A stretch of 32,000 nt of DNA from Candidatus Iainarchaeum sp. (GTDB taxonomy: Archaea > Iainarchaeota > Iainarchaeia > Iainarchaeales > CSSED10-239), in the NCBI GenBank assembly GCA_028700905.1, contig JAQVRT010000002.1:1-32000 (forward strand), written 5' to 3'. Within the stretch, counting starts at the first letter, position 1, and each line of letters opens with the position of its first letter. Below the pieces are notes generated by a model, which was not told the origin of the DNA, searched no databases, and worked only from the letters and a program-made list of their open reading frames with translations. Shown one piece after another: positions 12,201-29,428 of this stretch. Position numbers and translations under genes: made by a program.

Positions 12201-12709
12201 CAATAGGATATTTTTCAGGAATTACAGAAAATGATGCAAAAAGATTAGAAAAAAACTATTCTTTTTTAGAAAGTGTGCTTTTTAATAAAGAACTTTCAAA
12301 TTTTGATGAAAAATACAATGAAAAAGATTATAAAGGTGCACTTAATTCTATTTCATTAGAAACAATTAACAGAATAGATAAAATAAAATCTGATTATGAT
12401 AATTTAACATCTGGTTTAATTGAAATTAAAAATGATGCAAAAAAAGAAATTATTGAATATCAAAAAAAAGAATATGATCTAGAAACATTGAATTTTGCAA
12501 AAACCAATTATGATGACGAAAAATATCTTGATGTAATATATGTACTTAAACAAAAAGGTCCAATTACAAAAAATTCAACAAAAACACAATATTTGTTAAT
12601 TACAATAGTTGTGATTTTATTTATTAGTTTATACGCTTATTTAAGGTTAGGTAATAAAAAGAAAGAAAAAACCATTGCTGAGAAAAAGAAAAAAATATTA
12701 AGACATTAA
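9221..12709 (+). CDS. giant coiled-coil surface lipoprotein with C-terminal membrane anchor
   Basis: 1162-aa ORF with a TTG start, and GGAG 9-12 nt upstream (taggagatacaaaagTTG). It has a signal peptide ending in the lipobox-like LSGC, more than 1000 aa of N/K/E/I-rich heptad-like sequence, and a C-terminal TM (YLLITIVVILFISLYAYL) plus a basic tail. Confidence 0.75.
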   Translation: MIDKKIYIYFLLILLVSLSGCLEFITTREKQACLALTHYSSTSIDDCTSQNKCFLEIEKLSIEKNNKLPLSLSQNIDTYKNYLASSHYYYTLTKEELDLLHEGCEKEEVKTILGHYNKTMDLFSKTFAYVNNATKKSMYLIIDYTLFLEKQEVNLIPEEEIFQDYILLNDNINFMKKQIENESYLSKVDQEIKKLHTYSKELGFNETYLSKENVSDLTLYYLEIYEKEINSQEINLPEILRINSFVYKKLSNIEDLRNINYNLNKLDGYNFYILMDKLVGKEKSLVTEFIILNNKVNDSLNIVYEKINNYQIEIEKNKNYLTTEKYNYYLKEKNNFENKTITFGRYLSELKEINLEILQNQEIIEQEKLENSELFACDILVENLENQSNLYISKLITDYKESNNLVEKINYCEKIKNAIEIKNCQEIMYAIIDSGIEEIKDYELYVYSTENDCLEHINNINYKLESNTQIIELRKNIQDIERKLSEIYIENKQEENYALISEIEKDIKNITSKTNVELILNISSNFEKINKINTELDKLIKKIIAENKNYTIKKINEEYYLEIENKFSQVILNLEFNNPYINLISKDPELNVNKSKIKVLKVNPGKNYFLVEYENNKKINYEIIYLALNESIVKITIENEVEGIYDSLNFIPGFTVKNKDVEIKDDKIYYYTKNINEFYVYGPLFETNINKKIEEINTEKFILTTNITIKNNFFEKINHKLIIKEHKENEVNSFYKNNKELNLIEENNMLLYNIEIKEKEVIDFILKTLVEKENVYKEIREMILAAEKLKNTRYLDIQNQAQKDVKYLLDTTYSENYTIEDIEKIYSYYNLLQQLLEKNNNYEVIEENYLLTLNEILKYELTLTEENKLQKIELNKYENMILAEKEITKLLIDIKKRNENLEEKNKSLEIAEFKELNEIIYENNLENIDLDLLSKDKNITEIKDIINQKLKEKAEELYYYINPITNNLEEDKITEIINKTYLLYETYSLTDLYSIGYFSGITENDAKRLEKNYSFLESVLFNKELSNFDEKYNEKDYKGALNSISLETINRIDKIKSDYDNLTSGLIEIKNDAKKEIIEYQKKEYDLETLNFAKTNYDDEKYLDVIYVLKQKGPITKNSTKTQYLLITIVVILFISLYAYLRLGNKKKEKTIAEKKKKILRH

Positions 12710-12758: not shown

Positions 12759-13922
12759 ATGAATTATAAGTATTTTCTATTAATTATTGGAATAATATTA
12801 GTTTCAAATCTATTGTTTGCAACAACAATCGATGAAACCACTTTAAATATATTAAATAAAGGCGATATTGTTGTTGAAAAAGGAAATAGTTTTTGTAAAG
12901 ATTATTCTTTTAATCTAAAAACTGATGAATTTACAGAAACCTATCTTCAATTAATGCTAAAAAACTACATACCTATATCTAAAGGTGTTGCAATTAATAT
13001 AAAGGTAAATGATAAAAACATTACAGAAATAATTGATAAGGATATTAAGGAAAAAAATATAGTTTATTTAGGAAAATTAGAATCTATTAATAACAAATTA
13101 GAAATTTGTGTTGAAAATAATTTTTTACCAAGATTAATTATAGATTCAGATAGTTTAATTGGAACATATTATAACTCAAAAATAACTGATGATGATTTTT
13201 ATCAAGATGCACCTTCTATAGCATATGTAAATACCTTAATACCTATAACCATACATGTAAGAAATAGTGGTTATGCAGATACTTATATTGAGCTTGAAAA
13301 TGCATCGAATTTATTTATATACAATTCAAATTTAGAAAATGTTTCAGGAGAAACAAGTTTTCAAGGAATTCTTAAAGCACAAAGTGAAATTAAAATAGAT
13401 TATTTTGTAAAAACAGATTCAAATAATACTTTTGCAACCCCTATTGCAAATTTAAAATATAAAGATGTTTTTGATCAAGAAATTACAAAAAAAATTAAAC
13501 AAAAAATAATAAATATTTCAGAAAAAGAAAATGCATTAGAAAATCACATTGATATTCAAAAAATTATTACTCCTAAAGAAGAACAAACAGGGCACTTAAT
13601 AATAATTAATAATTCTGAAAAAGAAGTTACAGATCTTTATATTAAACCTTATTTTAATGGAGAAATAATTCTTTCTCAAGAAAAAATAAATTTAATTAAA
13701 GCAAAAGATGTAGTTGAAATACCATTTATTATTAAAACCTATAAAGAAGGAGAACACACCTTAAATTTTAATCTTAATTATTTAGAAAATGAGGTTGTAA
13801 AAAATATTGGAACTCAGACAATAATTGTTAATTCAAAAAATCCAGATACTTCTGAAAATACAGCAATAACTATTTTATTAATAATTACTGTGTTTTTATT
13901 CATATGGATTGTAAAGATTTAA
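12759..13922 (+). CDS. surface protein with two CARDB/S-layer-like (COG1361-type) domains and a C-terminal TM anchor
   Basis: The track ORF starts at TTG 12729. The ATG at 12759 gives a clean signal peptide (MNYKYFLLIIGIILVSNLLFA). The segments IPITIHVRNSGYADTYIELENAS and GHLIIINNSEKEVTDLYIKP resemble CARDB-type repeats. The C-terminal helix is AITILLIITVFLFIWIV. Confidence 0.7.
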   Translation: MNYKYFLLIIGIILVSNLLFATTIDETTLNILNKGDIVVEKGNSFCKDYSFNLKTDEFTETYLQLMLKNYIPISKGVAINIKVNDKNITEIIDKDIKEKNIVYLGKLESINNKLEICVENNFLPRLIIDSDSLIGTYYNSKITDDDFYQDAPSIAYVNTLIPITIHVRNSGYADTYIELENASNLFIYNSNLENVSGETSFQGILKAQSEIKIDYFVKTDSNNTFATPIANLKYKDVFDQEITKKIKQKIINISEKENALENHIDIQKIITPKEEQTGHLIIINNSEKEVTDLYIKPYFNGEIILSQEKINLIKAKDVVEIPFIIKTYKEGEHTLNFNLNYLENEVVKNIGTQTIIVNSKNPDTSENTAITILLIITVFLFIWIVKI

Positions 13923-15673
13923 ACAATTCTTTTAAATAATATTTCAAGATCTTTTATAGATAAAAATATAATTGTTGGTCTTCCATGAGCACAAATACCT
14001 TTATCTTTACAAAGATTTAATTTTTTAATAAGTTCTATTTGTTCATGTATGCTTAGATAATCATTAGCTTTAATTGATTCTTTACAAGATCTTAATTTTA
14101 AAAGACTATCTTTAAGTTTTAAAACTTCATTATTACCTTCTTCTATATCTTTTAAAAGATTTAAAAATAAATTCTTATCAAAATATTTATTTAAAAATAA
14201 AGGAATTGTCTTTAAAAAATAGACCTCGTTTTTTAGATAATATTCAAAACCAATTTTTTTAAAAATTTCAATATTATTATTTAAAATTTCTTTATGTGAT
14301 TCAGATATAAAATCTAAAGAAATTTCTGAAATTAAATTTTGTTTTTCAACATAATCTGAATACTTCAATCTATTTTTTTCTAAATTTATTCTTTCATCAG
14401 CAGCATGTTGATCAATTAATATCATACCTTTGTCAGTTTCACAAATAATAAAGGTATTTTTTATTTGACCGAGTATTTTTGTAATATTGTGTTCAAATAA
14501 AGTTAAATTATCTGTATTATTAAATGAATTATTGTTTTCATAAAGTGGTTTTTGAAGATCACTTCTAAAAAATGGAACCTCTCTATTACTTGAAAAATTA
14601 TTATTTGAATAATTATATTGAACTGGTTTTTCAAAAGAAGAATTATTAGAAGGCTTAGAAGAAATAAAATCTTTTAATGAATTATGTTCTAAAGCAGGTG
14701 CGAATTTACCTAAGGAGGCATCTAATTTATTTGATAATTCTCTTTTAAACTCAGATAAAAACAACATTTCATTCTGTAATTTAACCACTCTTTTTTTAGG
14801 ATGTACATTTACATCAATTGTTCTTGGATCTAGTTCAATAAAAAGAATAAAAAATGGTTTTTGTTGTATCATTAAATAATCTTTATAAGAATCTATGATT
14901 GCTTTATAAATCTGAGGTGAAAACACAAATCTCTTATTAATAAATAAAAAATTTGAAGGAAAATAAACTGGATTTTGAGGATTTGTTAAAATCCCTTTAA
15001 CTTTAAATAATTCAGTGTCAATATTAAGATTTATAGTTTTTGTTTTAATTTCAGAACCATATATTTGAACTAACCTATTTTCAAAATCTGTTTTTGGAAA
15101 TATTATATTTTTCTTTTCAGAAATAAATTTAAAAGTGATGTTTGGGTTTAATAAAGCATTTGCAAGAAAAACTTCATATAATTTTGAATATTCAAAACTT
15201 TTTGATTTTAGAAATTTTTTTCTCACAGGAACATTATAAAATAAATCTTGAACTGTTATAGTGGTCCCTTTATTTGAAGATACTTGAGAAATATTGTTGT
15301 TTTCTAAAAGATATCCTTTTCCATCATTTGTTGTAGAAGAAACAATTTTAAATTTTGAAACAGCAGCAATTGTAGATAAAGCCTCACCTCTAAAGCCAAA
15401 ACTATCAATAGAGTAAAGGTCATCAATTTTTTCAAGTTTACTTGTAGTATATTTTTCAAGACAAATTTCTAAATCTTCTTTTAAAATACCAGTTCCATCA
15501 TCTTTTATTTTTATTAAATCTAAACCAGAAGATTTTATTTCAACAACTATTTCTGTTGCTTTAGCATCAACTGAATTTTCTAAAAGCTCTTTTAAAATAT
15601 CGCTTGGCCCTTCAATTACTTCTCCCGCACTTATTAGATTTATTGTTTCTTGAGATAATTTTTTAATAAACAT
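13919..15673 (-). CDS. mutL: DNA mismatch repair protein MutL (endonuclease-type)
   Basis: 584 aa. It has a GHKL ATPase N-terminus (ISAGEVIEGPSDILKELLENSVDA, FGFRGEAL), a C-terminal endonuclease motif DQHAADERINLE and CAHGRPT. Confidence 0.9.
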   Translation of the reverse strand: MFIKKLSQETINLISAGEVIEGPSDILKELLENSVDAKATEIVVEIKSSGLDLIKIKDDGTGILKEDLEICLEKYTTSKLEKIDDLYSIDSFGFRGEALSTIAAVSKFKIVSSTTNDGKGYLLENNNISQVSSNKGTTITVQDLFYNVPVRKKFLKSKSFEYSKLYEVFLANALLNPNITFKFISEKKNIIFPKTDFENRLVQIYGSEIKTKTINLNIDTELFKVKGILTNPQNPVYFPSNFLFINKRFVFSPQIYKAIIDSYKDYLMIQQKPFFILFIELDPRTIDVNVHPKKRVVKLQNEMLFLSEFKRELSNKLDASLGKFAPALEHNSLKDFISSKPSNNSSFEKPVQYNYSNNNFSSNREVPFFRSDLQKPLYENNNSFNNTDNLTLFEHNITKILGQIKNTFIICETDKGMILIDQHAADERINLEKNRLKYSDYVEKQNLISEISLDFISESHKEILNNNIEIFKKIGFEYYLKNEVYFLKTIPLFLNKYFDKNLFLNLLKDIEEGNNEVLKLKDSLLKLRSCKESIKANDYLSIHEQIELIKKLNLCKDKGICAHGRPTIIFLSIKDLEILFKRIV

Positions 15674-15683
15674 ATATTTTCAC

Positions 15684-18203
15684 TTATTTTTTATAATCTT
15701 CTAATTTTTTTTGTTCTTTTTTAAAAAGAATTCTTTTTTCATCTTGATTATTTTTTTTAACTTCTTGCAAATTAGTAGAAGATTTATTTTGTTTTAAAAA
15801 AACATCTTCTTCTAAATCCCTTTGAATTAATAATGCTTTTTCAATAATTTCTTCTGGAAGACCAGCAATTTTAGCAACTTGAATTCCATAACTTTTATTA
15901 ATTCCACCTTTAATAAGTTTATGATAAAAAACTAAATTATTATCTTCTTCTTTTGCAGTAACATGGTAATTACTAATTCCTTCAAATAATTCTTCCATTT
16001 TATTTAGTTGATGATAATGGGTTGCAACTAAAGTTTTTGATTTAACTATATTATTTAAATAATCTGTAATTGACCAAGCAAGACTTAATCCATCATAAGT
16101 ACTTGTACCTCTTCCAACTTCATCTAGAATAATAAAACTATTATTTGTACAATGATTTAAAATATAAGAAATTTCAGACATCTCAACTAAAAAAGTACTT
16201 TGACCATGTAAAATATCATCAGAAGCACCAATTCTTGTGAAAATTCCATCAATTAAACCAATTTCAGCATCTGTTGCAGGAACAAAGCAACCAACATGTC
16301 CAAGAATAATTGCAAGACAAACACTTCTCATATAACTACTTTTACCAGACATATTCGGACCAGTAATTATCATTGTTCTTTCTAAGTTATCTAAAGTACA
16401 ATCATTTGGTATAAATTCAATATTTTTTTCAATAATTGGATGTCTTAAATTTTTAAATGTTAATTTATTAGAATCATTTATAATTGGTCTTGAATAATTA
16501 TTATATAAAGATACATTTGCAAATGAATAATAAACATCAAGTTCTGAAATTAAACTTGCAACTAAACTTATTTCTTCTCTATAGGTATTGATCTCTTTAC
16601 AAATTTCTAAAAAAATATTATATTCTAGTTCAATTCTTTTTTCTTGAGCATTTAAAACAATTATTTCTTTTTCAGATAATTCTTTTGTTGTAAATCTTTC
16701 TGCGTTTACAAGTGTTTGTTTTCTCTCAAAATAAGAAGGCACTTCTTTTGATTGTGCTTTTGGAATTTCTATATAATATCCAAATACTTTATTAAATTTT
16801 ACTTTTAAAGATTTAATATTTGTTTCATTTTTTAATCTTGCTTCAAATTCAACTAACCAAGAATTAATATTTTTAGAAGTATAAATTAAATCACTTAATT
16901 CTTTTGAATAACCTGGTTTTATAAATTTACCTTCTCTAACTGTAAAAGGAGGTTCTTCAACAATTGAAATATTAATTAATTCATGTAATTTATCTAAAGT
17001 AATTAACTCACTGTTTAATATTTTTAAATTTTTAGAAGAAGTACTCTCTAAAATCATTTTTATTTTTGGAAGTATTGAAAGACTTTGTTTTAAAGAAATT
17101 AAATCTCTTGGATTTGCATTACCAAAACCAATTTTACTAATTATTTTTTCAATATCTCCAATATACGATAAATTAAAAGAAATCTCTTGCATTAAATGTT
17201 GATTATTAATTAATTCTTCAACAGAATCATAAATATCATTTAATTTTTCTTTATCTAGTATAGGGTGTAATAAATCAAAATATAATTTTCTATAACCCAT
17301 AGGTGTTTTTGTATGATTAATTAAATGGAATAAAGAGTTTTTTATTGAAAAATCTTGAAGATTATAAACTAATTCTAAATTTCTAACAGTTTTTCGATCT
17401 AATTTTAAATATTTGTTTAATGAATATTCTTTTATAGTTGTAATATAGCTTAAATTTGAAAATTGAGTTTCTTTTAAATATTTAATAGCATTATATGCTG
17501 ATAAAATAATTTCTGATGATTGGTTACTTGAAATCATCCCAAAAGGAGTTAAAGATTTCATGTTGAAGTGATTTAGTAGCTCTTGATAGGCAAATTCAAC
17601 ATCTAAATTTTCTGTATAGTTTATAATGGTGCTCGGTATTGCTTTTTTAATAAGATTAAGTTGATCTATATTTTTTAAAATATTCTTTGTTAATAATATT
17701 TCTTTTGGTTTATTTAATATAAGTTCATTTAAAAGATTTGAAAAATCATTAAAAGAAGTAATTTTAAATTCACCTGTAGTAATATCAACTAAAGAAAATC
17801 CAAATTTATCTTTATAATTTGTAATAGAGCATAAAAAATTATTATCATAGGAATCATTAAAAAAAGTACTAGGAGTAATTATTCTTGTAACTGCTCTTTT
17901 AACCAGACCTTTTGCAAATTTAGGATTTTCTATTTGATCGCAAATTACTACTTTTTTTCCAGATTTAATTAATTTTGCAATATAAGGATCAATTGAATGG
18001 TAAGGTATACCTGCAAGAGGAGCTTCAGTTGCCCCTTTACCTCTTTTGGTTAAAGTTATGTTTAGGATACTCGATGCTTCTTTTGCATCATCAAAAAACA
18101 TTTCATAAAAATCTCCCGCTCTAAAAAGTAAAATACCTTCAGGGTATTGCTTTTTAGTTTCAACATATTGTTTCATCATAGGAGTATATGTTTTATCATC
18201 CAT
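15684..18203 (-). CDS. mutS: DNA mismatch repair protein MutS (MutS1 type)
   Basis: TPMMKQY..K...P..ILLFRAGDFYEMF is the mismatch-binding Phe-x-Glu motif. It also has Walker A GPNMSGKS, DEVGRGTSTYDG and a THYH motif. The ATG at 18203 (MDDKTYTPMM) is preferred over the track start at 18227. Confidence 0.92.
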   Translation of the reverse strand: MDDKTYTPMMKQYVETKKQYPEGILLFRAGDFYEMFFDDAKEASSILNITLTKRGKGATEAPLAGIPYHSIDPYIAKLIKSGKKVVICDQIENPKFAKGLVKRAVTRIITPSTFFNDSYDNNFLCSITNYKDKFGFSLVDITTGEFKITSFNDFSNLLNELILNKPKEILLTKNILKNIDQLNLIKKAIPSTIINYTENLDVEFAYQELLNHFNMKSLTPFGMISSNQSSEIILSAYNAIKYLKETQFSNLSYITTIKEYSLNKYLKLDRKTVRNLELVYNLQDFSIKNSLFHLINHTKTPMGYRKLYFDLLHPILDKEKLNDIYDSVEELINNQHLMQEISFNLSYIGDIEKIISKIGFGNANPRDLISLKQSLSILPKIKMILESTSSKNLKILNSELITLDKLHELINISIVEEPPFTVREGKFIKPGYSKELSDLIYTSKNINSWLVEFEARLKNETNIKSLKVKFNKVFGYYIEIPKAQSKEVPSYFERKQTLVNAERFTTKELSEKEIIVLNAQEKRIELEYNIFLEICKEINTYREEISLVASLISELDVYYSFANVSLYNNYSRPIINDSNKLTFKNLRHPIIEKNIEFIPNDCTLDNLERTMIITGPNMSGKSSYMRSVCLAIILGHVGCFVPATDAEIGLIDGIFTRIGASDDILHGQSTFLVEMSEISYILNHCTNNSFIILDEVGRGTSTYDGLSLAWSITDYLNNIVKSKTLVATHYHQLNKMEELFEGISNYHVTAKEEDNNLVFYHKLIKGGINKSYGIQVAKIAGLPEEIIEKALLIQRDLEEDVFLKQNKSSTNLQEVKKNNQDEKRILFKKEQKKLEDYKK

Positions 18204-18263
18204 AATATAATATATAATAGAAAACAATTAAAAATAGTAATTTTAAATTTAAATAAAGATAAA

Positions 18264-18337
18264 TGGCTCCGGTGGGATTTGAACCCACGACACATAGGTC
18301 TTCAGCCTATTGCTCTCCCAGGCTGAGCTACGGAACC
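18264..18337 (-). tRNA. tRNA-Phe (GAA)
   Basis: Hand-folded cloverleaf on the minus strand: GGTTCCG/TA/GCTC-loop-GAGC/A/ATAGG-CTGAAGA-CCTAT/GTGTC/GTGGG-TTCAAAT-CCCAC/CGGAGCC/A. All stems pair (one G-U), the anticodon is GAA, length is 74 nt, and no CCA is encoded. Confidence 0.9.
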
Positions 18338-18363
18338 ATTATTTTTTTAAAATATTAAGGAAG

Positions 18364-18438
18364 TGAGCTCGGTGGGATTTGAACCCACGACACCTGGATT
18401 AAGAGTCCAGTGCTCTTACCAGACTGAGCTACGAGCCC
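18364..18438 (-). tRNA. tRNA-Lys (CUU)
   Basis: Cloverleaf: GGGCTCG/TA/GCTC-loop-GAGC/A/CTGGA-CTCTTAA-TCCAG/GTGTC/GTGGG-TTCAAAT-CCCAC/CGAGCTC/A. The anticodon is CTT, length is 75 nt, and no CCA is encoded. Confidence 0.9.
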
Positions 18439-18473
18439 TAATAATTATTTTAAAATAAAAAAATAATAGAAAG

Positions 18474-18547
18474 TGAATCCGGTGGGATTTGAACCCACGA
18501 CACCTGGATTAAAAGTCCAGTGCTCTGCCAGACTGAGCTACGGATCC
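18474..18547 (-). tRNA. tRNA-Lys (UUU)
   Basis: Cloverleaf: GGATCCG/TA/GCTC-loop-GAGC/A/CTGGA-CTTTTAA-TCCAG/GTGTC/GTGGG-TTCAAAT-CCCAC/CGGATTC/A. The anticodon is TTT, length is 74 nt, and no CCA is encoded. Confidence 0.9.
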
Positions 18548-18667: not shown

Positions 18668-19192
18668 ATGATTAAAATATTAAAATTAGATCACAGACCC
18701 CTTAGAGATAAAAGGATTACAACACATTGTGCTTTAGTTTCTAGGGCATTTAATGCAGATGAATTTTATTACTCAGGGATAGAAGATAATGTTTTTGAAA
18801 AAAATATAATTTCTATTAGTGATCAATGGGGTGGTAAATTTAATGCTAAATATATTGAATTACCAGAAACTTTTGTTGATGAATTTAAAGGAGTAATCAT
18901 ACATTTAACAATGTATGGAGAACAAATTGTTGAAAAAATAGAATTTATAAAAAAAGATTTTAAAACTAAAGATTTATTGATTATTGTTGGTGGTCCTAAA
19001 GTAGATAAATTTTATTATCAAAAAGCTAATTATAATATTTCTGTAACAAACCAACCACATAGTGAAGTTGCAGCTCTTGCAATTATTTTAAATTTTTTAA
19101 ACCCAACTGCGTTATATGTGGATAAATTTAAAAATAATAAGATAAAACTAGAACCTGCAGAAAAAGGTAAAAAAGTAATCTCCTTAAAATAG
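18668..19192 (+). CDS. trm56: tRNA (cytidine56-2'-O)-methyltransferase aTrm56 (SPOUT family)
   Basis: 174 aa. The N-terminal LKLDHRPLRDKRITTHCALVSRAFNADEF matches the archaeal Trm56 signature (RLGHRPERDKR.TTHVAL.ARAFGA). The C-terminal part SVTNQPHSEVAALAIIL is also as in the family. Confidence 0.8.
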   Translation: MIKILKLDHRPLRDKRITTHCALVSRAFNADEFYYSGIEDNVFEKNIISISDQWGGKFNAKYIELPETFVDEFKGVIIHLTMYGEQIVEKIEFIKKDFKTKDLLIIVGGPKVDKFYYQKANYNISVTNQPHSEVAALAIILNFLNPTALYVDKFKNNKIKLEPAEKGKKVISLK

Positions 19193-19233: not shown

Positions 19234-19806
19234 ATGAATAAATTGAAAAAAGACCTATTATCTGATAAATCAACAGCTATTTTTTTAGAACAAATTGCAG
19301 GACCTATGGCAATTAATGTTATAAAATTATTTAATAACGATGGATTATCTCCTGAAGATATTTCTAAAAAATTAAATGAAAAAATTACTGTTGTAAGATC
19401 TACATTAAATAGTCTTCACTTCAGAGGAATTGCATGTTATAAAAAACAAAGAAATGAAAATAATTTATATGAATTTATATGGGAAATAAAATATAAAAAA
19501 ATAGTAGATGTTTTATTATTACAAGAAATTAAAAAATTCAAAAAATTAGAATATGAATTAACACAAAAAGAAGGACATGATTATTTTTTCTGTCCTAAAA
19601 AATGTAATGTAGAAGTTATATTTGAAGTTGCTGCAGCTTATAATTTTAAATGCCCTAATTGTAGTGCTAATTTAGAAATATTAAATAGTAAAAATAAAAT
19701 TAATAAACTTAAAAGAGAAAAAAAGATTGTTGAAAAAAATATTAAAAAATTAGAAGAATTATTAAAAAAGATTAATGATAATACTTCTGGATATCATTGT
19801 GAATGA
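19234..19806 (+). CDS. tfe: transcription factor E (TFE alpha, TFIIE-alpha homologue)
   Basis: 190 aa. It has an N-terminal extended winged helix (AINVIKLF...LSPEDISKKLNEKITVVRSTLNSLHFRGIACYKK) followed by a zinc ribbon (CPKKC...17 aa...CPNC). A purine-rich GGAAGTGGTG lies just upstream of the ATG. Confidence 0.8.
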   Translation: MNKLKKDLLSDKSTAIFLEQIAGPMAINVIKLFNNDGLSPEDISKKLNEKITVVRSTLNSLHFRGIACYKKQRNENNLYEFIWEIKYKKIVDVLLLQEIKKFKKLEYELTQKEGHDYFFCPKKCNVEVIFEVAAAYNFKCPNCSANLEILNSKNKINKLKREKKIVEKNIKKLEELLKKINDNTSGYHCE

Positions 19807-19886
19807 TATTTATTGTTTTAAGTAGGTTTATATATATTTTGGTATATTAAAATATATATTAAGACTATTTTTATTAATTTAAAAAA

Positions 19887-19961
<75 letters not shown>

Positions 19962-20153
19962 CTTAAAATTATGGTTAAATTACTACTTTTCTTGGACATA
20001 TTTTCACATTATAAATAACCTTATTTTAAATTAAAAAAAAGAAATTATAACCCTTATAAATAAAATAAAGGCTAAAAAAACCTCTATTATTAATAAAAAC
20101 AAATAATAGATTTATTTTTTAAAAAATAACCTTAAATTAAGTATATTTTAATT

Positions 20154-20380
20154 GTAATTACCATGGTAATTACGATAAAAAACACTGATTATTATATAAA
20201 AATAGATAATAATTCATTATACTACATAATTATATATTAAGAATTATTAATTATATTTTTTAATAAATAAAATAATTAGTAATTACCATCAAATTAATCA
20301 AATAATTACGGTAATTACGATAAATAGGACTATATAATTACTGTAATTACCAATCTATTTAAAATAATTACGGTAATTAC
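20154..20380. repeat. array of GTAATTAC palindromes upstream of CDS 20388 (putative operator, iteron or centromere-like sites)
   Basis: There is a perfect 20-bp palindrome GTAATTAC-CATG-GTAATTAC at 20154-20173. Tandem units ATAATTA(C)-N0-1-GTAATTAC sit at 20272-20286, 20302-20318, 20334-20350 and 20364-20380, with GTAATTAC starts spaced 32, 32 and 30 bp apart. The last unit ends 8 nt before the ATG at 20388. Confidence 0.85.
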
Positions 20381-20387
20381 TATATAT

Positions 20388-20957
20388 ATGGGCTTACTAA
20401 AATTTATTAAAAAAATGTTTTCAAAAGAAAAAAATAATGAAAACAACACAACTACAAATAATAATACAAATATAGCTATAGAAAAAAACACAATAAATAG
20501 TGCAAATACTATACCCTATTCTTCTGAAAATATTAATAAAAATATTAACCAAAATAATAATATTAATGAAAATTTAAGTAATGAAAAATATTTAGAACAA
20601 GAAAAATTATTACAATTAAAATATCTTAATAATAAAAATAATATAATTGAAGATAATGTTCAAACAGCAGATGTTGAAAATATTTCAATAAAACAATTAA
20701 ATACAATTTGGGATATTTTAAAAATTAAAGAAAACACTCAAGCAGAACATATTATTAATTCTATACCAACAGATAAATGGGTAACTATGGATGAAATAAG
20801 ACATAACATAAAACTTAATTTTAATGTAGAATATTCTAATGAAAAAAGTCTTTATCCTTATTTAAAAACACTAACAGATATAAATTTAATAAAATTAAAC
20901 AACACAGGTAAAAAAAGAACTTGGAAAAAAAATATTATATTTATTAAAGAAAATTAA
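20388..20957 (+). CDS. hypothetical protein: Asn-rich low-complexity N-terminus, winged-helix-like C-terminal domain
   Basis: 189-aa ATG ORF. Residues ~15-65 are N/T/I low complexity. The C-terminal ~90 aa have HTH-plus-wing character (WVTMDEIRHNIKL...SLYPYLKTLTDINLIKLNNTGKKRTWKK). The gene is bracketed on both sides by GTAATTAC repeats. Confidence 0.6.
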   Translation: MGLLKFIKKMFSKEKNNENNTTTNNNTNIAIEKNTINSANTIPYSSENINKNINQNNNINENLSNEKYLEQEKLLQLKYLNNKNNIIEDNVQTADVENISIKQLNTIWDILKIKENTQAEHIINSIPTDKWVTMDEIRHNIKLNFNVEYSNEKSLYPYLKTLTDINLIKLNNTGKKRTWKKNIIFIKEN

Positions 20958-21007
20958 GTAATTACTAAAAAATAATAGTAATTACTAAAAAAAATATAGT
21001 AATTACT
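20957..21007. repeat. three phased 10-bp palindromes AGTAATTACT in the convergent gap between CDS 20388-20957 and 21016-21615
   Basis: AGTAATTACT occurs at 20957-20966, 20977-20986 and 20998-21007 (20- and 21-bp spacing), separated by A-runs. The first copy overlaps the stop codon of the upstream gene. Confidence 0.85.
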
Positions 21008-21015
21008 TTACAAAA

Positions 21016-21615
21016 CTAAATTTTATTTTTAATTTCTAAATAGTTATTATAAAATTTAATTAATTTTTCAGATTCTTCTTTAACTTCTTTAAACCATTCA
21101 AAATTAATTATATTTTCTACAATTTTAGAAATATTTGCTAAATGTGTTTTATCATAAATATTATTTTCAGTAATATATTTTAATTCATCATAAATATTTG
21201 TTTCTTTATTATTAAGATTAATTATCTTATAATTATATATATAATCTTCCATAATTTTAATAATATTTGAAGAATCTAAATCAATTTCATCAACAGTATA
21301 TTTAACATCCCATTCACCTTTACTTTTCCAATTATGTGCTGGATTAATTCCTGTTGAAAAATAATCTATAATTTTATTTTCATAACCTTTAGGAATAATT
21401 ACTGCGTTTCTTCCTGGTTTATAATGAGGTATGTCTGTTAAAATTCCTTTTCTAATATATAAATATGGTTTATTATTTTTTTTAGTTACATTTTGTTGAT
21501 AACCATAAATAGATCTAAATACTTTTTGATAAAGATAAGAAGATCTATTAATATCATCTTTAAAAATAAATTTATATTTTATATATATTGATTTTATTTT
21601 ACTCAAGAGAGACAC
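21016..21615 (-). CDS. hypothetical protein (no family recognised)
   Basis: 199-aa ORF with a GTG start at 21615, preceded on its strand by AGGAAGT (SD-like). Both the start codon and the SD-like motif lie inside the left 20-bp inverted repeat. The N-terminal half has a beta-alpha-beta-beta pattern (YKFIFK / SYLYQKVFRSIYGY / YLYIRKG / AVIIP), and the C-terminal half is helical. Confidence 0.55.
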   Translation of the reverse strand: MSLLSKIKSIYIKYKFIFKDDINRSSYLYQKVFRSIYGYQQNVTKKNNKPYLYIRKGILTDIPHYKPGRNAVIIPKGYENKIIDYFSTGINPAHNWKSKGEWDVKYTVDEIDLDSSNIIKIMEDYIYNYKIINLNNKETNIYDELKYITENNIYDKTHLANISKIVENIINFEWFKEVKEESEKLIKFYNNYLEIKNKI

Positions 21616-21758: not shown

Positions 21759-22121
21759 TTACCTTCTTGCTGAATATTTACTCTTATAACCTATATATTT
21801 TTTTCTTATTGCTGCATCTTTACTTTTAGCAGGATCCACTACTTCTTCATCAACCATTTTAACTTCTTTTTTGTTAGTTGGTACGTTTCCTGCATTAATT
21901 AAAATAATATCATCAGCAGATATAACTTTATTATAAGGTATACTGTGTTCAGTTATTATTTTTTTAGCTTCAATTTTAGAATTTACTTTTAAAGGTTGAG
22001 TTGTTATTGTTTCAATAACACCTTGTTCAATATTTACTATTAAATCATGAACTTTTCCTCTATAAGTAGCATCTGTTTGGTAAATATCCATACCAAATAA
22101 TTTTGAAATTCTTGTTGTCAT
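21759..22121 (-). CDS. PRC-barrel domain protein (second paralogue in window)
   Basis: 120 aa. LFGMDIYQTDATYRGKVHDLIVNIEQGVIETI...IPYNKVISADDIILI is a PRC-barrel pattern, followed by a basic C-terminal tail. GGAGG lies 9-13 nt upstream of the ATG (tggaggaattataaATG), and this leader resembles that of the 2188-2448 paralogue. Confidence 0.75.
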   Translation of the reverse strand: MTTRISKLFGMDIYQTDATYRGKVHDLIVNIEQGVIETITTQPLKVNSKIEAKKIITEHSIPYNKVISADDIILINAGNVPTNKKEVKMVDEEVVDPAKSKDAAIRKKYIGYKSKYSARR

Positions 22122-22306: not shown

Positions 22307-23152
22307 TTATAGATCATCTAATGGATTTTTTATAATTTTTAATTTATTTGTATTAACTTTAGTGTATATTTGGGTTGTATTTAGGTTAGCATGCCCTAGT
22401 AATTGTTGTATGTATCTTATATTCACATCATTTTCAAGCAGATTAGTTGCAAAAGAATGTCTTAAGGTGTGTGGAGATACTTTTTTATCAATTCCTGCTC
22501 TTTTAGCTGCTATTTTTAAAAATTTTTGAACAGTATCTACAGATAATGGTTTTCCAATACTATTACAAAATAAATATTCTGATGATATTTGTCTATTTTC
22601 AAGATATTTTTTATATTCTTCAACCCATTTTTTAGAAAGTATTATTATTCTATCTTTATTTCCTTTACCAGAAACAACTTTTCCAGTATATTCATTAAAA
22701 TCTAAATCTTTATACTTCATTTCCATACATTCAGAAATTCTAACTCCTGTTGAAAAAATAAATTGTGTAATTAATTTATTTCTCAAATCTGTTATATTTT
22801 CTAAAAGTAAAATTATTTCTTTAGAGGTTAAAACCACAGGTATTTTTTTAGCTTTTTTTGGTAATTTAATTTTAAGTTCTAGATCAATTTTTAAAAAATT
22901 TGAATAAAAATGCTTAATTGCAGAAAGCACTAAGTTCATTGTAGTACTTTCAGCTTTTTTTTCTTGTTTTAAATAAGATAAATATTCAATAACATCATCA
23001 CTATTTATAGTAATTAAATCTTTTTTAATAAATTTTGAAAATAATGTTATATACATTGAATACATATCAATAGTTTTATCACTATAACCTTCAATATTTA
23101 ATTCATTTTTAAATTTATTAATTAATTTAAGGTTGTTTTCTAAAATATCCAT
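22307..23152 (-). CDS. tyrosine recombinase, XerA/XerC/XerD-like
   Basis: 281 aa. It has an N-terminal SAM-like core-binding domain (GYSDKTIDMYSMYITLFSKF) and the catalytic signature R (TGVRISE), K (GKGNKDR), HTLRHSFAT and LGHANLNTTQIYT (H/Y). It is full length with no sign of disruption. Confidence 0.88.
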   Translation of the reverse strand: MDILENNLKLINKFKNELNIEGYSDKTIDMYSMYITLFSKFIKKDLITINSDDVIEYLSYLKQEKKAESTTMNLVLSAIKHFYSNFLKIDLELKIKLPKKAKKIPVVLTSKEIILLLENITDLRNKLITQFIFSTGVRISECMEMKYKDLDFNEYTGKVVSGKGNKDRIIILSKKWVEEYKKYLENRQISSEYLFCNSIGKPLSVDTVQKFLKIAAKRAGIDKKVSPHTLRHSFATNLLENDVNIRYIQQLLGHANLNTTQIYTKVNTNKLKIIKNPLDDL

Positions 23153-23383: not shown

Positions 23384-23902
23384 ATGAGTTATGGTAAATT
23401 TCAAATTTATACAGGTGATGGAAAAGGAAAAACCACTGCTGCTATAGGTTTATCTATTAGAGCTGCCGGAAGAGGTGCTAAAGTTTATTTTGTTCAATTT
23501 TTAAAAAATCAAAAAACTGGAGAACAAAACACCTTACCTTTAATTAAAAACATTACTTTCAAAAGATTTGGATTTAAGGAATTTATAATTAATAATAAAA
23601 TATTAAAAGAACATATAGAAACAACAAAAAAAGCAATATTATATGTTGATAAAATTTTAAAAAAAGAAAAAATAGATGTTTTAATTTTAGATGAATTGAA
23701 TATTATTCTTTATTATAATTTAATAACAATAGAAAAAGTTAAAGAAATTATTAATATTTGTAAACAAAAAAATATTGAACTTATAATAACTGGCAGAAAA
23801 CCAAACAAAGAATTAATTAAAATTGCAGATCTTGTAACTGAAATGAAAGAAATTAAACATTATTTTAAAACAACTTATGCAAGAAAAGGAATTGAATTTT
23901 AA
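23384..23902 (+). CDS. cobA: ATP:cob(I)alamin adenosyltransferase, CobA/CobO/BtuR type
   Basis: 172 aa. The N-terminal IYTGDGKGKTTAAIGLSIRAAGRGAKVYFVQFLK and later ILDELN ... ITGR fit the CobA-type P-loop adenosyltransferase. GGGG lies about 10 nt upstream of the ATG. Confidence 0.85.
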   Translation: MSYGKFQIYTGDGKGKTTAAIGLSIRAAGRGAKVYFVQFLKNQKTGEQNTLPLIKNITFKRFGFKEFIINNKILKEHIETTKKAILYVDKILKKEKIDVLILDELNIILYYNLITIEKVKEIINICKQKNIELIITGRKPNKELIKIADLVTEMKEIKHYFKTTYARKGIEF

Positions 23903-23925: not shown

Positions 23926-26526
23926 ATGAACATGGTTTTAAAAATAAAAAAAATTACACAAATTAAAAAAAGAACAGGTGAAGTTGTAGATTTTAATAAA
24001 CTAAAAATTAAATCTGCTATTTTAAAAGCAATGAAATCTGTTGATCAAGTTAATGAATCTTTATTAGAGACATTAGTTGAAAAAGTAATTTTAGTTTTAG
24101 AATCTAAATTTGTAAATAAAGTTCCTTCTGTTGAAGATGTTTCAGATACTATAGAATATGTTTTAATTGCAACTGAACAAACTGAAGCTGCAAAATCATT
24201 TATTCTTTATAGAGAAGAAAAAAGAAAATTAAGAGAAAATAAAGAAATTATTGAAGATAAAGAAATTGTTAAAAAATTAAAAGATGCTAAAGTTTCTCTT
24301 TCAAAACAAGCAATTAATGTTTTAAATAATTCAGATGCTTTTAAAGATTTAGGTTTAATTATTTTTTTAGATAGGTATTCTTTAAAATCTAAAAGAGATC
24401 AAATAGAAGTAGGTGATCTTGTAATCACTATTACAAAAGAAGATCCTAAATACCCTAAAAAAGATATTGGTATTGTAAAAGATATTGTTAATAATAAATT
24501 ACATTTACACATGATTACTGGTGTTTATGCAGACCAATATTATAATTATGAATTTATTCAAGATCAAAGTAAATCAGAAAAACCATCAGAATCTGTTTTT
24601 GATACTTATAAAAGAGTTGCAAAAGCTGTTGCAAGAGTTGAAAAAGATGAATATCTTAAAAATAAATGGTTTGAAGAATTTTATGAACAATTAAAAAATA
24701 ACCATATTTCTCCTGGAGGAAGAATTCTTTCTGGTGCATCAGTTGATGATTTAGGTTATACTTCAAATTTAACATTATATAATTGTTATGTGATACCTTC
24801 TGCTAAAGATTCTAGAAGTTCAATTATAAAAGATGCAGCTCACCAAATGACTGAAATTTTTTCAAGAGGTGGTGGTGTTGGAACTTCTCTTTCAAGTTTA
24901 AGACCAGCTTATGCATATGTAAGAGGAGTACATGGTAGATCTTCTGGAGCTGTTTCTTGGGGTGGTTTATTTTCTTTTATAACTGGTTTAATTGAACAAG
25001 GTGGATCAAGAAGAGGTGCTCTAATGCTTATGCTTGATGATTGGCATCCAGATATTTATTCTTTTATTGATTCAAAAACTAAATCTGGTGTTTTAGAACA
25101 TGCAAACATTTCAGTAAAAGTTTCTGATTCATTAATGGAAGCTGTAAAAAATGATGATGATTGGTATTTAGAATTCCCAGATTATGAAAATGCAACTTAT
25201 TCTGAAGTTTATGATCAAGAATGGGATGGAGATTTAAAAGGTTGGAAAGAAAAAGGATATCCTACAAAAATTTATGAAAAAGTAAAAGCTAGAGAACTTT
25301 GGAAAAAAATAATTCAATCTGCATGGAAATCAGCAGAACCAGGTGTTGTTTTCATGGAAAGGTATAATAAATTAAGTAATAGTTATTATTTTAATAAAAT
25401 AGTTGCAACAAATCCATGTGGTGAACAAGGTCTTCCTCCATGGGGTGTTTGTAATCTTGGACACCTTTATTTAGCTTCTTTTGCTGAAAAAGTTGGGGAA
25501 GATGAAATTGGTCCTCTTTATGAATTTAATTGGGATAAATTAAAAAAATCTGCAAGAGTATTAACTAGATTTTTAGATAATATAATTGATTTAACACCAT
25601 ATTTCTTTTCAGAAAATGAAAAAGTTCAAAAATCAGAAAGAAGAATTGGTGGAGGAACTTTAGGTCTTGCAGAATTATTAATAAGATTAAGAATTAAATA
25701 TGGTTCTAAAGAAAGTATAAATTTTATTGATAAATTGTATAAAACAATAACTTGTGAAATGTATTCTACTTCTGCTCTTTTAGCTGAAGAAAAAGGATTC
25801 TTCCCAAAGTTTGATAAAGAAAAATACTTAAATAGTAATTTTATTAAAGAACTTCCTTTAGAAATTCAAGAAAAAATTAAAGAAAAAGGAATTAGAAATG
25901 TAACTTTAATAACTCAAGCACCTACAGGTTCTACTGGAACAATGATTGGAACTTCTACAGGAATAGAACCTTATTTTGCTTTTAAGTTTTATAGACAATC
26001 AAGACTTGGTTTCCACGAAGTAAATGTTCCTTTAGCACAAGATTATATTAAAGATGGAAAACTTCCTGATTTCTTTATTTCAGCAATGGAATTATCTCCT
26101 GATGATCACATTACAGTTCAAGCAGCAATACAAAAATGGACAGATTCTTCTATAAGTAAGACTGCTAATGTTCCTGCAAATTTTACAGTTGAGCAAACTG
26201 AAGAACTTTATATTAAAGCTTATGAACTTGGATGTAAAGGAGTTACAATTTATAGAGATTCTTCAAGAGATGAACAAGCTTTATCAACTGATAAAAATTT
26301 AGAACAAAAGAATGCAAAATCTATTAAAAAACAACTTGATGAAAAAACAAAAAAAGTAAAAGTTCAAGAACCAGTTGTTGAAGAAGAAAAAGAAGATGTA
26401 GTTTATGGTTCTGAAGCTGGAGAAACTTGCCCTTCATGTAGAAAAGGTGTTATGATTAAACTTGGTGGTTGTACAGAGTGTTCTGCAGGTTGTGGATTTA
26501 AAGGTTCTTGTGATATGAAAAATTAA
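23926..26526 (+). CDS. nrdJ: adenosylcobalamin-dependent ribonucleotide reductase (class II, NrdJ) with N-terminal ATP-cone and C-terminal Cys-rich zinc-ribbon tail
   Basis: 866 aa. It has an ATP-cone (KKRTGEVVDFNKLKIKSAILKA), an RNR core (LYNCYV, SRGGGVG, SRRGA) and the active-site finger loop NPCGEQGLPPWGVCNLGH. The tail is TCPSCRKG...GGCTECSAGCGFKGSC. Confidence 0.9.
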   Translation: MNMVLKIKKITQIKKRTGEVVDFNKLKIKSAILKAMKSVDQVNESLLETLVEKVILVLESKFVNKVPSVEDVSDTIEYVLIATEQTEAAKSFILYREEKRKLRENKEIIEDKEIVKKLKDAKVSLSKQAINVLNNSDAFKDLGLIIFLDRYSLKSKRDQIEVGDLVITITKEDPKYPKKDIGIVKDIVNNKLHLHMITGVYADQYYNYEFIQDQSKSEKPSESVFDTYKRVAKAVARVEKDEYLKNKWFEEFYEQLKNNHISPGGRILSGASVDDLGYTSNLTLYNCYVIPSAKDSRSSIIKDAAHQMTEIFSRGGGVGTSLSSLRPAYAYVRGVHGRSSGAVSWGGLFSFITGLIEQGGSRRGALMLMLDDWHPDIYSFIDSKTKSGVLEHANISVKVSDSLMEAVKNDDDWYLEFPDYENATYSEVYDQEWDGDLKGWKEKGYPTKIYEKVKARELWKKIIQSAWKSAEPGVVFMERYNKLSNSYYFNKIVATNPCGEQGLPPWGVCNLGHLYLASFAEKVGEDEIGPLYEFNWDKLKKSARVLTRFLDNIIDLTPYFFSENEKVQKSERRIGGGTLGLAELLIRLRIKYGSKESINFIDKLYKTITCEMYSTSALLAEEKGFFPKFDKEKYLNSNFIKELPLEIQEKIKEKGIRNVTLITQAPTGSTGTMIGTSTGIEPYFAFKFYRQSRLGFHEVNVPLAQDYIKDGKLPDFFISAMELSPDDHITVQAAIQKWTDSSISKTANVPANFTVEQTEELYIKAYELGCKGVTIYRDSSRDEQALSTDKNLEQKNAKSIKKQLDEKTKKVKVQEPVVEEEKEDVVYGSEAGETCPSCRKGVMIKLGGCTECSAGCGFKGSCDMKN

Positions 26527-26544: not shown

Positions 26545-26979
26545 ATGATTAATGTAAAAAAATTAACTGAAACTGCAAAATTACCAGAAAGAGCACATGA
26601 TGATGATGCAGGATTTGATTTATTTTCTGATGAGGATGTTGTTATTCCTGCAATGGAAAGAAAAGTTATAAAGACAGGAATCTCTGTTTCAATTAATTTT
26701 GAATCAACTGATTATAGTTGTTATTTAAGGATTGCTCCAAGATCTGGACTTTCTGTTAAAAAAGGAATTGATGTTTTTGCAGGTGTTGTTGATTTAGGGT
26801 ATAGAGGAGAAATCATGATCTGTTTATTTAATTCTTCAAAAGAAGATTTTGAAATTAAGAAAGGAGATAAGATAGCTCAAATGATACCTACATTAATTTT
26901 AAAAACAAATATACAAGAAGTAAATTCTCTTGAAGACACTTCTAGAGGAGAAAAAGGTTTTGGATCTTCTGGAAATTAA
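26545..26979 (+). CDS. dut: dUTP diphosphatase (trimeric dUTPase)
   Basis: 144 aa with all dUTPase motifs: AGFDL, PRSGL, GVVDLGYRGE and RGEKGFGSSG. Confidence 0.92.
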   Translation: MINVKKLTETAKLPERAHDDDAGFDLFSDEDVVIPAMERKVIKTGISVSINFESTDYSCYLRIAPRSGLSVKKGIDVFAGVVDLGYRGEIMICLFNSSKEDFEIKKGDKIAQMIPTLILKTNIQEVNSLEDTSRGEKGFGSSGN

Positions 26980-27247: not shown

Positions 27248-29428
27248 TTATATAACACCTTTTTCTAAATTATTTTTTTTATTTTTTCCTTTTTCTTTTT
27301 CTATATTTTTTATTTCTTTAATTGCTTTTTTAATATGTTTTTCAGTTATTAAAAGATTTTTTTCATTTCCAACTATGTTTTCTCTTAAAACATCCATACC
27401 AGCTTCTCTAACAACAGCTTCAATTTCAGCACCTGAAAAGCCATCTGTTATTTTTGAAAGTTCTTTAATATTTATATTTTTATCAGTATTCATTTTATTT
27501 AAATAAACTTCAAATATTTTTTCTCTTGATTTTAAGTCTGGATTTGGAATTTCTAATTTTAAATCAAATCTTCCTGGTCTTAAAAATGCTGCATCCACTA
27601 TATCTAATCTATTTGTAGCACCAATAATAACAATATCTTTTAATTTTGAAACACCATCCATTTCTGTTAATAATTGTGCTACAACATTATTAGATGCACC
27701 TGATAAATTTTCAGAAGATTTTCTAGAAACTGTAATTGCATCAATTTCATCAAAGAAAATAATTGCTGGTGCAAGTTGTCTGGCTTTTTTAAAAACATCT
27801 CTAATTTTTTTTTCAGATTCTCCAACCCATTTATTAAAAATTTCAGGCCCTTTTATTGATATAAAATTTGCAGAGCTTTCATTTGCTATTGCTTTTGCAA
27901 TTAATGTTTTTCCAGTACCAGGTGGTCCATAAAGTAAAACGCCTGCAGGAGGTGTTAATTTTAATTCTTTAAATTTATCAGGATATTTTAAAGGCCATTC
28001 AATCATTTCTTTTAATTTTTGTTTTTGCTCATCAAGCCCACCAATATCTTCCCAAGTAGTTGTAGGTATTTGAACTTGCACTTCTCTTAATGCAGAAGGT
28101 TCTACAACATTTAGCGCGTCCAAGAAATCTTGGTGTGTTATAATTAATTTATCTAATATCTCTCTCGATAAATGTTTCCCACTTTCTTTATTAATTAAAG
28201 GCATTAATCTTTTTATTGCTTTTAATGCAGCTTCTTTACAGAGTGCTGAAATATCAGCTCCAGAAAATCCATTTGTAATTTCTATAATTTCATCTATGTT
28301 AAGATCTTTAATAGGCATTCCTCTAATATGAACTTGTAATATTTCTTTTCTTGCTTCTTTATCAGGAACATTAATTTCAAGTTCTCTATCAAATCTTCCA
28401 GGTCTTCTTAATGCAGGATCAATTGAATCTGGTATATTTGTTGCAGCAATAACAACAACTTGTCCTCTTGCTGTAAGACCATCCATTAATGTTAAAAGTT
28501 GTGCAACAACACGTTTTTCAGTTTCTCCATGAATGTTTTCTCTTTTTGGAGCAATAGCATCAATTTCATCAATAAAAATAATTGCAGGTGCATTTTCTTC
28601 TGCATCTTTAAAAATATCTCTTAAATTTTCTTCTGATTTTCCATAAACTCCTGAAACAATTTCAGGACCATTAATAGTTATAAATTTTGCATCAGTTTCA
28701 GATGCTACTGCTTTTGCAAGTAAAGTTTTTCCTGTTCCTGGAGGTCCATAAAGTAAAACTCCTTTAGGAGGAGATATACCTAACTTTTTAAAAATCTCTG
28801 GTCTTTTAATAGGAAGTTCAACCATTTCTCTTATAGCTTCAATTTCTTTTTTAAGCCCACCAATATCATCATAAGTCATAGAAGGGGTCTTTGAATCTTC
28901 TGCCTTTTCTGAAATAATTACTTTTGTATTTTCAGTAATCCTTACAGCATTTTTAGGAATTGTTTTATTTACAATTAATTGTAAGTCTCTATAACCATCT
29001 TCTGTTAGAATAGGAAGCCCTGGGATTTTAACAATGTTTTTTTCAACAATATTAATATTTAATAATTTTTCTTTAATTAAACTTTCAACATCTTTAGTTA
29101 AATTTATTTTTTTATTTTTTTCAATAATAGGTGCAAGGTTAATTGTTTCACAAGGCAATACATTTGCTTTTTCTATAAAAACAGAATCATCTATTGATGC
29201 ACCAGAGTTATGTCTTACAATACCATCTATTTTTATTTGATTTAAACCAGCATCAAGTTCTGTGCCTCTAGTTGCATAAGCTAATGCTCTTTTAGATCCT
29301 TCAATTAATATTACATCTCCAATAGTTAATTTCATTTTATCAAAAACAAGTGGATCTAATTTTGCAATACCTTTTAAAGCATCTTTAATATCTGTTTCTT
29401 TAACAGTTAATATTATTTTTTCAACCAT
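27248..29428 (-). CDS. cdc48: Cdc48/VCP-like AAA+ ATPase (two AAA domains)
   Basis: 726 aa. It has a Cdc48 N-domain ([21 protein letters not shown]), two Walker A motifs GPPGTGKT, two Walker B motifs ([16 protein letters not shown]) and SRH regions ([38 protein letters not shown]). Confidence 0.93.

Follow-up and report, generated by a model that had tools for sequence, protein, structure and literature searches.

Archaeal repressors of the helix-turn-helix (HTH) and winged-helix class reportedly include MDR1 (Archaeoglobus), LrpA and Phr (both Pyrococcus), which bind within their own promoter, at the TATA box or downstream of it; repressors of this type bind their operators cooperatively, and characterised archaeal repressors located in the TATA-to-start interval block assembly of TBP/TFB or RNA polymerase. 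Short-repeat arrays are bound by the centromere-binding autorepressors ParR (parC, plasmid R1) and omega (heptad repeats, pSM19035), plasmid-borne ribbon-helix-helix proteins whose genes adjoin those of a partner nucleoside triphosphatase (NTPase; ParM, or delta, a ParA), and by the iteron initiators RepE, pi and TrfA, which carry two winged-helix domains and act at a replication origin. Noc of Bacillus subtilis, a ParB-family CTPase, tethers DNA to the membrane through dozens of chromosomal sites. To our knowledge, DPANN archaea are almost entirely uncultivated, and we know of essentially nothing on their gene regulation or chromosome handling. Here, a 32,000-nt stretch of Candidatus Iainarchaeum sp. 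(assembly GCA_028700905.1, contig JAQVRT010000002.1, positions 1 to 32,000; hereafter the window) was analysed, in which an array of the 8-bp palindrome GTAATTAC surrounds an open reading frame (ORF) encoding a 189-residue protein, ORF189. The array is probably an operator set through which ORF189 represses its own gene cooperatively.

Like MDR1, LrpA and Phr, ORF189 is of the HTH/winged-helix class by its predicted fold, and its putative operators are several and lie between TATA box and start. It differs from them in having no sequence relationship to them, an 8-bp palindromic word, no evident ligand-binding domain, up to 12 phased copies of the word that also lie downstream of the gene and within genes, and a long linker that carries an amphipathic N-terminal helix.

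Ten copies of GTAATTAC were found in the window, both strands counted, against 0.73 expected from 100 dinucleotide-preserving shuffles (mean 0.73 per 32 kb, maximum 3, 0 of 100 reaching 10), and nine of the ten are packed into 853 bp around ORF189, with exact starts at 20154, 20166, 20279, 20311, 20343, 20373, 20958, 20978 and 20999. The tenth starts at 15966, within the mutS reading frame, and corrects an earlier note on this DNA, which had found no other exact copy in the remaining 31 kb. One stray copy matches the chance expectation for the whole window, so within the window the word is not a generic repeat of this AT-rich genome, nor as common as a REP-like element would be; extension of the window by 4.5 kb past its right end gave no further site.

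When positions 19900-21300 were re-read, the nine coordinates given in the earlier note, its three ATAATTAC variants (starts 20302, 20334 and 20364), its degenerate ATAATTAG and its 20-bp palindrome all proved exact. Successive proximal double sites, four in all, are 32, 32 and 30 bp apart, with the last ending 8 bp 5' of the ATG (20388), and the downstream AGTAATTACT triplet fills the 58-bp gap between the ORF189 stop codon (20957) and the end of the convergent ORF199 (21016), as the note had described (30-32 bp and 20-21 bp). The first array site lies 192 bp beyond the end of tRNA-Met.

The centre of a TATA-like box, TTTAAAATA, lies 26 bp 5' of the A of the ATG, and the box extends at its 3' end into the first half of double site 4 (20364-20380 against 20358-20366). 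The sites do cover the predicted promoter, as had been proposed, and this overlap of a site with the TATA-to-start interval is kept in relatives. In an alignment of eight AT-rich relatives from tRNA-Met to the start codon, the alignable part was limited to the proximal ~95 bp; these comprise three composite sites and an invariant TTTA(A/T)AATA, the 3' end of which forms the first half of the final composite, with the last GTAATTAC immediately 5' of the ATG. GC-richer relatives have the order CGTAATTATTTTAA-GTAATTAC-about 14 nt-ATG, with a TATA-like stretch preceding the last site, and an exact GTAATTAC starts 10-24 nt 5' of the assigned ATG in 29 of 37 loci. Between distal and proximal sites lie 110-180 bp of non-conserved AT-rich spacer, and in most AT-rich relatives a distal pair, with its sites 12 or 20-22 bp apart, is found at about -165 to -270. 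In the usual archaeal promoter geometry, a box at the distance seen here puts the transcription start at the start codon, so the ORF189 mRNA is predicted to be leaderless.

For comparison across the phylum, one genome per GTDB species was scanned, giving 38 loci (referred to by L numbers) that encode an ORF189 relative, in genomes of 20-47% GC; the closest genome is the complete chromosome of Candidatus Forterrea multitransposorum (CP045477.1; ORF189 92% identical, neighbours 94-99%). GTAATTAC was present within 450 bp upstream of the homologue in every locus with more than about 100 bp of upstream DNA, a group from which only the 5'-truncated L029 is missing. Upstream regions contained 152 copies in 16.9 kb (9.0/kb), compared with 0.16/kb over the other 408 kb. 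Copy number was 5-10 in AT-rich genomes and 1-3 in GC-richer ones. Taking the 32 kb of this genome together with about 360 kb that flank the locus in relatives, the sites are concentrated at this one locus. The earlier description of the gene as bracketed by sites is accurate here and was too general for the family: downstream sites occur in L001 and L002 (triplets), L003 (one) and L018 (two), and most other loci have none. Since the triplet is limited to the Forterrea-like clade, bracketing is a lineage-specific elaboration.

Spacings between neighbouring sites in 37 loci pile up at 9-13, 18-22, 30-33, 41-42, 50-51 and 61-62 bp. A Rayleigh scan over periods of 8-14 bp (131 neighbour spacings of at most 200 bp) gave a best period of 10.4-10.5 bp with R = 0.71, a value inflated by the relatedness of the genomes; with each distinct spacing used once, the conservative figure is R = 0.59, where random spacings reach 0.40 at the 99.9th percentile. 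The same-face phasing proposed from this one array is upheld statistically over 37 genomes. Gaps between distal and proximal sites (75, 84, 92, 95-96, 113, 116, 125 and 177 bp) are likewise near whole helical turns, and the downstream triplet is spaced 20/21 bp here and 31/31 bp in L002. Helical phase is conserved and exact site position is not, which argues for cooperative binding on one face of the DNA and for looping between the sets of sites.

ORF189 consists of a helix in the model at residues 4-11, a low-complexity linker (~13-95) and a winged helix (~105-185). In the alignments, a brief conserved stretch at the N-terminus (for example MGLLKFIKKMFSK or MSNIFQKLLTKLGLLKK) is followed by a linker that varies greatly in length and by a C-terminal ~85 residues with 50-80% identity throughout Iainarchaeota. 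An AlphaFold2 model built from 85 sequences has a block-mean predicted local distance difference test score (pLDDT; 10-residue blocks) of 86-95 over residues 111-180, with the topology helix-strand-helix-helix-strand-strand (helices 118-125, 134-145 and 156-164; strands 132-133, 168-173 and 176-181), corresponding to the H1-S1-H2-H3-S2-wing-S3 order of a winged helix; residues 1-100 are largely disordered, with low-confidence helices at 4-11 and 68-80. Foldseek searches of the PDB matched only winged-helix DNA binders (Fur, PerR, BlaI, MecI, PadR, MarR/ZitR and STIV F93; probability 1.0, root-mean-square deviation 2-4 Å over about 70 residues), and the winged HTH that had been suspected at the C-terminus is upheld by both the model and these matches. 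E-values were 3e-3 or weaker, which points to a generic winged helix of no assignable family. The residues that hardly vary cluster in the predicted recognition helix (KSLYPYLKTLTD) and in the basic wing (NNTGKKRTWKK), and the GTAATTAC word is constant throughout the phylum in step with them. Family-wide, the N-terminal 11-mers have a median hydrophobic moment of 0.69, against 0.51 in shuffled N-termini, and a net charge of +3.

The full-length protein had no match to a family in Pfam, NCBIfam, PHROG or PADLOC or to a PDB sequence, and the C-terminal domain scored below threshold with the PadR Pfam profile (E = 0.12, 12.9 bits, cut-off 27). AspA of the Sulfolobus plasmid pNOB8, a PadR-like centromere binder named for comparison in the earlier note, is, like ORF189, an archaeal winged-helix protein with a palindromic site upstream of its own gene, and PadR types are among the Foldseek matches; ORF189 differs in this sub-threshold profile score, in having no aspA-parB-parA operon, in being chromosomal and phylum-wide rather than plasmid-borne, and in having many short sites where AspA has one 23-bp nucleation site. 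A word-indexed search returned 86 homologues, and those named by their source are labelled hypothetical, archaeon, Iainarchaeum or ainarchaeum, bar a few evident mislabels. Four homologues (P0024, P0063, P0073 and P0079) are named by JGI as, for instance, 'transposase' or 'DNA mismatch repair ATPase MutL'; their sequences do not support such names, which are probably annotation errors. In an exhaustive profile search of the C-terminal domain against 1.84 billion cluster representatives, 37 clusters were found, all of the ORF189 family and all with E <= 1.8e-9; the missing twilight zone marks the family as narrow and sharply bounded. By these searches ORF189 represents an undescribed winged-helix family confined to Iainarchaeota. 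In full-text literature GTAATTAC appeared only in primers and unrelated sequences, and nothing relevant was found on winged-helix/operator systems in this phylum.

Taken with the sites, their enrichment and phasing, their co-conservation with the gene and their position relative to the TATA-like box, the predicted fold suggests that ORF189 is most likely the protein that recognises GTAATTAC, and that its binding is most likely repressive. The composite ATAATTACnGTAATTAC overlaps the 3' end of the TATA-like box and would fill the space to the start of the predicted leaderless mRNA; bound there, ORF189 would block assembly of TBP/TFB and RNA polymerase and so regulate itself negatively. The remaining sites, on the same helix face and whole turns apart, would let many copies of ORF189 bind cooperatively, and the distal pair, together with the downstream triplet in this genome, could loop onto the promoter and make repression sharper and more stable. 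Of the three functions offered in the earlier note, self-repression through an unusually large operator set has the best support, and we consider it probable. Co-conservation of gene and motif does not by itself identify the binder, and another factor could recognise the motif: GTAATTAC would then be the operator of a different, unlinked transcription factor, with ORF189 as its most conserved target. We regard this as improbable, since ORF189 itself has a DNA-binding fold whose nearly invariant recognition helix and wing match the invariant word, the sites concentrate at one locus as expected of self-regulation, and no other regulator gene is conserved in the syntenic block of the 38 loci.

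Several further observations weigh against autorepression as the whole account. At 8 bp the palindrome is on the short side for the dimer of a classical winged helix, so the 8-mer, the 17-bp composite and the 15-bp palindrome TAATTACnGTAATTA are all candidate binding units. The 9-12 sites found here exceed what simple autorepression needs, GC-richer relatives having one to three. Sites also lie outside the promoter. In four loci the Trm56 coding sequence, 1.65 kb upstream, carries ATAATTACnGTAATTAC and then GTAATTAC 31 bp on (L010, 4101-4148; L015, 4055-4102; L017, 4101-4117; L019, 4105-4152). At this site the four proteins read IITVITK...GNY, against IIEVLSK...GDF in relatives, and silent positions around the motif differ among the four; the Trm56 protein has been altered to fit the DNA word. 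In several lineages the low-complexity 5' part of ORF189 contains sites that are read as Ser-Asn-Tyr codons, L036-38 have sites inside ABCE1, and L006 has a five-site cluster (2090-2190) with about 21-bp spacing upstream of mutS. The downstream triplet, the extra intragenic sites and the amphipathic N-terminus are not explained by simple autorepression.

The intragenic sites of Trm56 mirror the promoter architecture within a gene body. The L006 cluster consists of five exact AGTAATTACT-type sites and one GTAATTAT variant, spaced 18-23 bp, and is intergenic, between the mutS start and a tRNA-Phe/Lys cluster, 2.3 kb upstream of the ORF189 homologue. A metagenome scan for the composite TAATTACNGTAATTAC returned at least 120 stretches, none of those listed encoding an ORF189 relative; these are chance or unrelated occurrences and are uninformative on a regulon.

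By analogy with centromere binders and DNA tethers, ORF189 might, besides regulating itself, coat a phased cluster over 1-4 kb, with the complex acting as a centromere or tether, and the conserved amphipathic helix on its long linker might bind the membrane or an unlinked partner ATPase. Such a ParA-independent or ParA-unlinked module would polymerise on one face of an origin-proximal cluster and tether the locus to the membrane or the division machinery, with autorepression conceivably its housekeeping side only. We hold this doubtful in each of its forms, though it draws on the same out-of-promoter sites: the recoded Trm56 composite with its single site 31 bp on, the sites in the ORF189 5' coding region and in ABCE1, the L006 cluster near mutS, and the downstream triplets of this clade, whose spacing shifts by whole turns between genomes. 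Phased clusters reach into neighbouring genes in several lineages, and outside a core of -700/+800 bp 30 copies of GTAATTAC were counted against 6.4 expected. The N-terminal 11-mers, with their raised hydrophobic moment and positive charge, are consistent with such a role; the conserved neighbours XerA and the PRC-barrel protein fit it as context only. In Forterrea a single origin adjoining cdc6 was mapped by GC skew and Z-curve and set as position 1 (PMC5905446), and the ORF189 locus, at 764-777 kb of 839.6 kb, lies about 70 kb (8%) from it; a locus at this distance is origin-proximal without the array being that origin, and such proximity has a roughly 17% chance by position alone. Pfam scans of 26 ORFs (all those of at least 100 aa in the 32 kb) gave no ParA, MinD or actin-like ATPase as a partner NTPase, and no ParB or SMC-type gene lies in the 32 kb either. 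The one to three sites of GC-richer relatives are all promoter-placed, and oligomerisation would be an equally good role for the amphipathic helix. ORF189 is monocistronic, the next gene being convergent.

The likeness to known tethers and centromere binders is partial. ParR-parC and omega share with ORF189 the short-repeat arrays around the binder's own promoter, with roughly one repeat or a few in each helical turn, a small binder with a flexible N-terminal tail, and cooperative one-face binding (for ORF189 a prediction); ORF189 is instead a winged helix, is chromosomal, and has no NTPase gene within 32 kb. Noc likewise combines an N-terminal amphipathic helix with a DNA-binding domain for palindromic sites, both predicted for ORF189, which however has no ParB domain and whose sites are known at one locus.

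The phased array was also weighed as a secondary, iteron-type chromosomal replication origin with ORF189 as its dedicated initiator and the repeats beside easily unwound AT-rich DNA; the earlier note had raised an iteron origin for a small integrated plasmid or virus. Iteron plasmids show a comparable layout of repeats; the locus, like those of RepE, pi and TrfA, has directional repeats at whole turns (17-bp composites with a 30-32 bp period) and inverted repeats at its own promoter, and the spacer between distal and proximal sites is AT-rich. ORF189, though, has one winged helix where these initiators have two in tandem, is otherwise disordered, and has no ATPase or helicase-loading domain; the Forterrea locus lies about 70 kb from the single cdc6-adjacent origin; the one to three sites of GC-richer relatives are placed as a promoter operator; and no relatives occur on viral contigs. 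An origin of this kind is unlikely, and we would give it very little weight. GC skew within the window follows gene orientation and is uninformative on an origin.

The last reading weighed, a small plasmid or virus integrated at tRNA-Met with its own repressor or partition site, has in its favour the position of the tRNA just before the first site and a tyrosine recombinase gene 1.35 kb beyond ORF189. It is effectively refuted. The order Trm56-TFE-(tRNA-Met)-ORF189-ORF199-PRC-barrel-XerA is kept in essentially all 38 Iainarchaeota loci, and the recombinase scores 277 bits as a XerA equivalog, above the cut-off of 220. A search of the window for attachment (att) duplicates, with up to three mismatches, showed no second copy of the last 25 nt of tRNA-Met, no ORF189 relative was found among the viral contigs of IMG/VR, neither ORF189 nor ORF199 had a match in PHROGs or PADLOC, and the GC profile has no island-like boundary beyond AT-rich intergenic DNA. 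Together, the synteny, the unduplicated tRNA 3' end, the XerA assignment and the IMG/VR result remove the integrated-element reading, and by these sequence comparisons the ORF189 locus is part of a core chromosomal block and not a mobile element.

What is new in this locus is the protein/DNA-word pair as a core feature of Iainarchaeota, the orphan family, the exact phasing, and the sites written into neighbouring coding sequences. The pair was reached from comparative sequence alone, as an 85-residue domain, the invariant octamer GTAATTAC, helical phasing and a defined promoter position, and is directly testable with recombinant protein and synthetic DNA; the octamer gives a search key for regulon or centromere-like site sets in every Iainarchaeota genome. 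If the recoded sites and the amphipathic N-terminus are truly structural, ORF189 would be a new kind of archaeal chromosome-organising factor; otherwise it would be a well-defined orphan family of self-regulating transcription factors in genomes that are very poor in regulators.

The window has about 23% GC, and its identified genes are all archaeal or universal housekeeping genes (Table 1). Rfam found only the tRNA in positions 19700-21200.

Table 1. Putative operator sites, promoter element and genes around ORF189, in window positions
Feature	Positions	Strand	Remarks
MutL, MutS	13919-18227
Three tRNAs	18263-18547
aTrm56	18668-19192
TFE-alpha	19234-19806
tRNA-Met	19887-19962
Putative distal operator, 2 sites	20154-20173	.	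perfect 20-bp palindrome GTAATTAC-CATG-GTAATTAC, 12 bp start to start
Proximal double site 1, degenerate	20272-20286	+	ATAATTAG (20272-20279) overlapping GTAATTAC; G shared with the exact site at 20279
Proximal double site 2	20302-20318	+	ATAATTAC-g-GTAATTAC; block kept in alignment of eight relatives
Proximal double site 3	20334-20350	+	ATAATTAC-t-GTAATTAC; kept in eight-relative alignment
TATA-like box TTTAAAATA	20358-20366	+	columns invariant in alignment; putative promoter role
Proximal double site 4	20364-20380	+	ATAATTAC-g-GTAATTAC; between TATA-like box and start codon
ORF189, 189 aa	20388-20957	+	predicted N-terminal cationic amphipathic helix, disordered linker, C-terminal winged helix
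Three downstream AGTAATTACT sites	20958-21006	.	starts 20958, 20978, 20999; 20 and 21 bp apart
ORF199	21016-21615	-	convergent orphan, kept throughout phylum; candidate for a role in the system
PRC-barrel protein	21759-22121
XerA equivalog (tyrosine recombinase)	22307-23152
Corrinoid adenosyltransferase	23384-23902
Ribonucleotide reductase	23926-26526
dUTPase	26545-26979
Cdc48	27248-29428
Topoisomerase	29558-31684

ORF199 has 56 homologues and no match in Pfam, NCBIfam, PHROG or PADLOC. Its AlphaFold2 model (pLDDT 90, predicted template modelling score 0.84) has a beta-alpha N-terminal half and a helical C-terminal half; there was no significant match in the PDB or BFVD, with only weak ferredoxin-like and Cas2-like matches, and the modelled fold may be new.

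Most loci have a second conserved non-coding element (consensus ACACwAAATyTTGGACA) in the interval from TFE to ORF189, where the clade decides on which side of tRNA-Met it falls; the window keeps only cTTGGACa (19990-19998) and has no other copy. The element was considered as a dif site and rejected, its conserved part lying 5' of TTGGAC and having no inverted-repeat arms, unlike the Pyrococcus abyssi dif site ATTGGATATAATCGGCCTTATATCTAAA (PMC2958812).

Among viral contigs, 54 carry three phased copies of GTAATTAC; all are ordinary tandem repeats, and none has an ORF189 homologue. Long tandem repeats containing GTAATTAC in IMG/VR L048 (721-2308), L067 (4347-4725) and L074 (5933-8957) have periods of 33 bp, 42 bp and multiples of 36 bp, encode no ORF189 relative and are unrelated to the ORF189 system.

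Two of the loci are filed as bacterial, L006 (NZ_JAEDAM010000051.1) as 'Candidatus Vampirococcus lugosii' and L007 (JAQUUM010000105.1) as 'Bacilli bacterium'; both carry the archaeal MutS-Trm56-TFE-ORF189 block and the array and are therefore probably mis-binned Iainarchaeota contigs. In L034, ARAGORN called an 89-nt 'tRNA-Stop' (2575-2663, anticodon TTA) where other loci have tRNA-Phe/Lys, which may be a miscalled long-arm tRNA or a suppressor-like gene.

At 9221-12709 (+), a 1162-aa ORF without a Pfam match lies in the coding stretch that is richest in A+T in the window (18-20% GC); the Forterrea paper (PMC5905446) mentions several membrane-anchored proteins of very large size. The window also holds two PRC-barrel genes (one at 2188-2448 besides that in Table 1) and the Cdc48 ATPase; both families are discussed in the archaeal cell-division literature, and the PRC-barrel family has been implicated in archaeal cell division (bioRxiv 10.1101/2023.03.28.534520).

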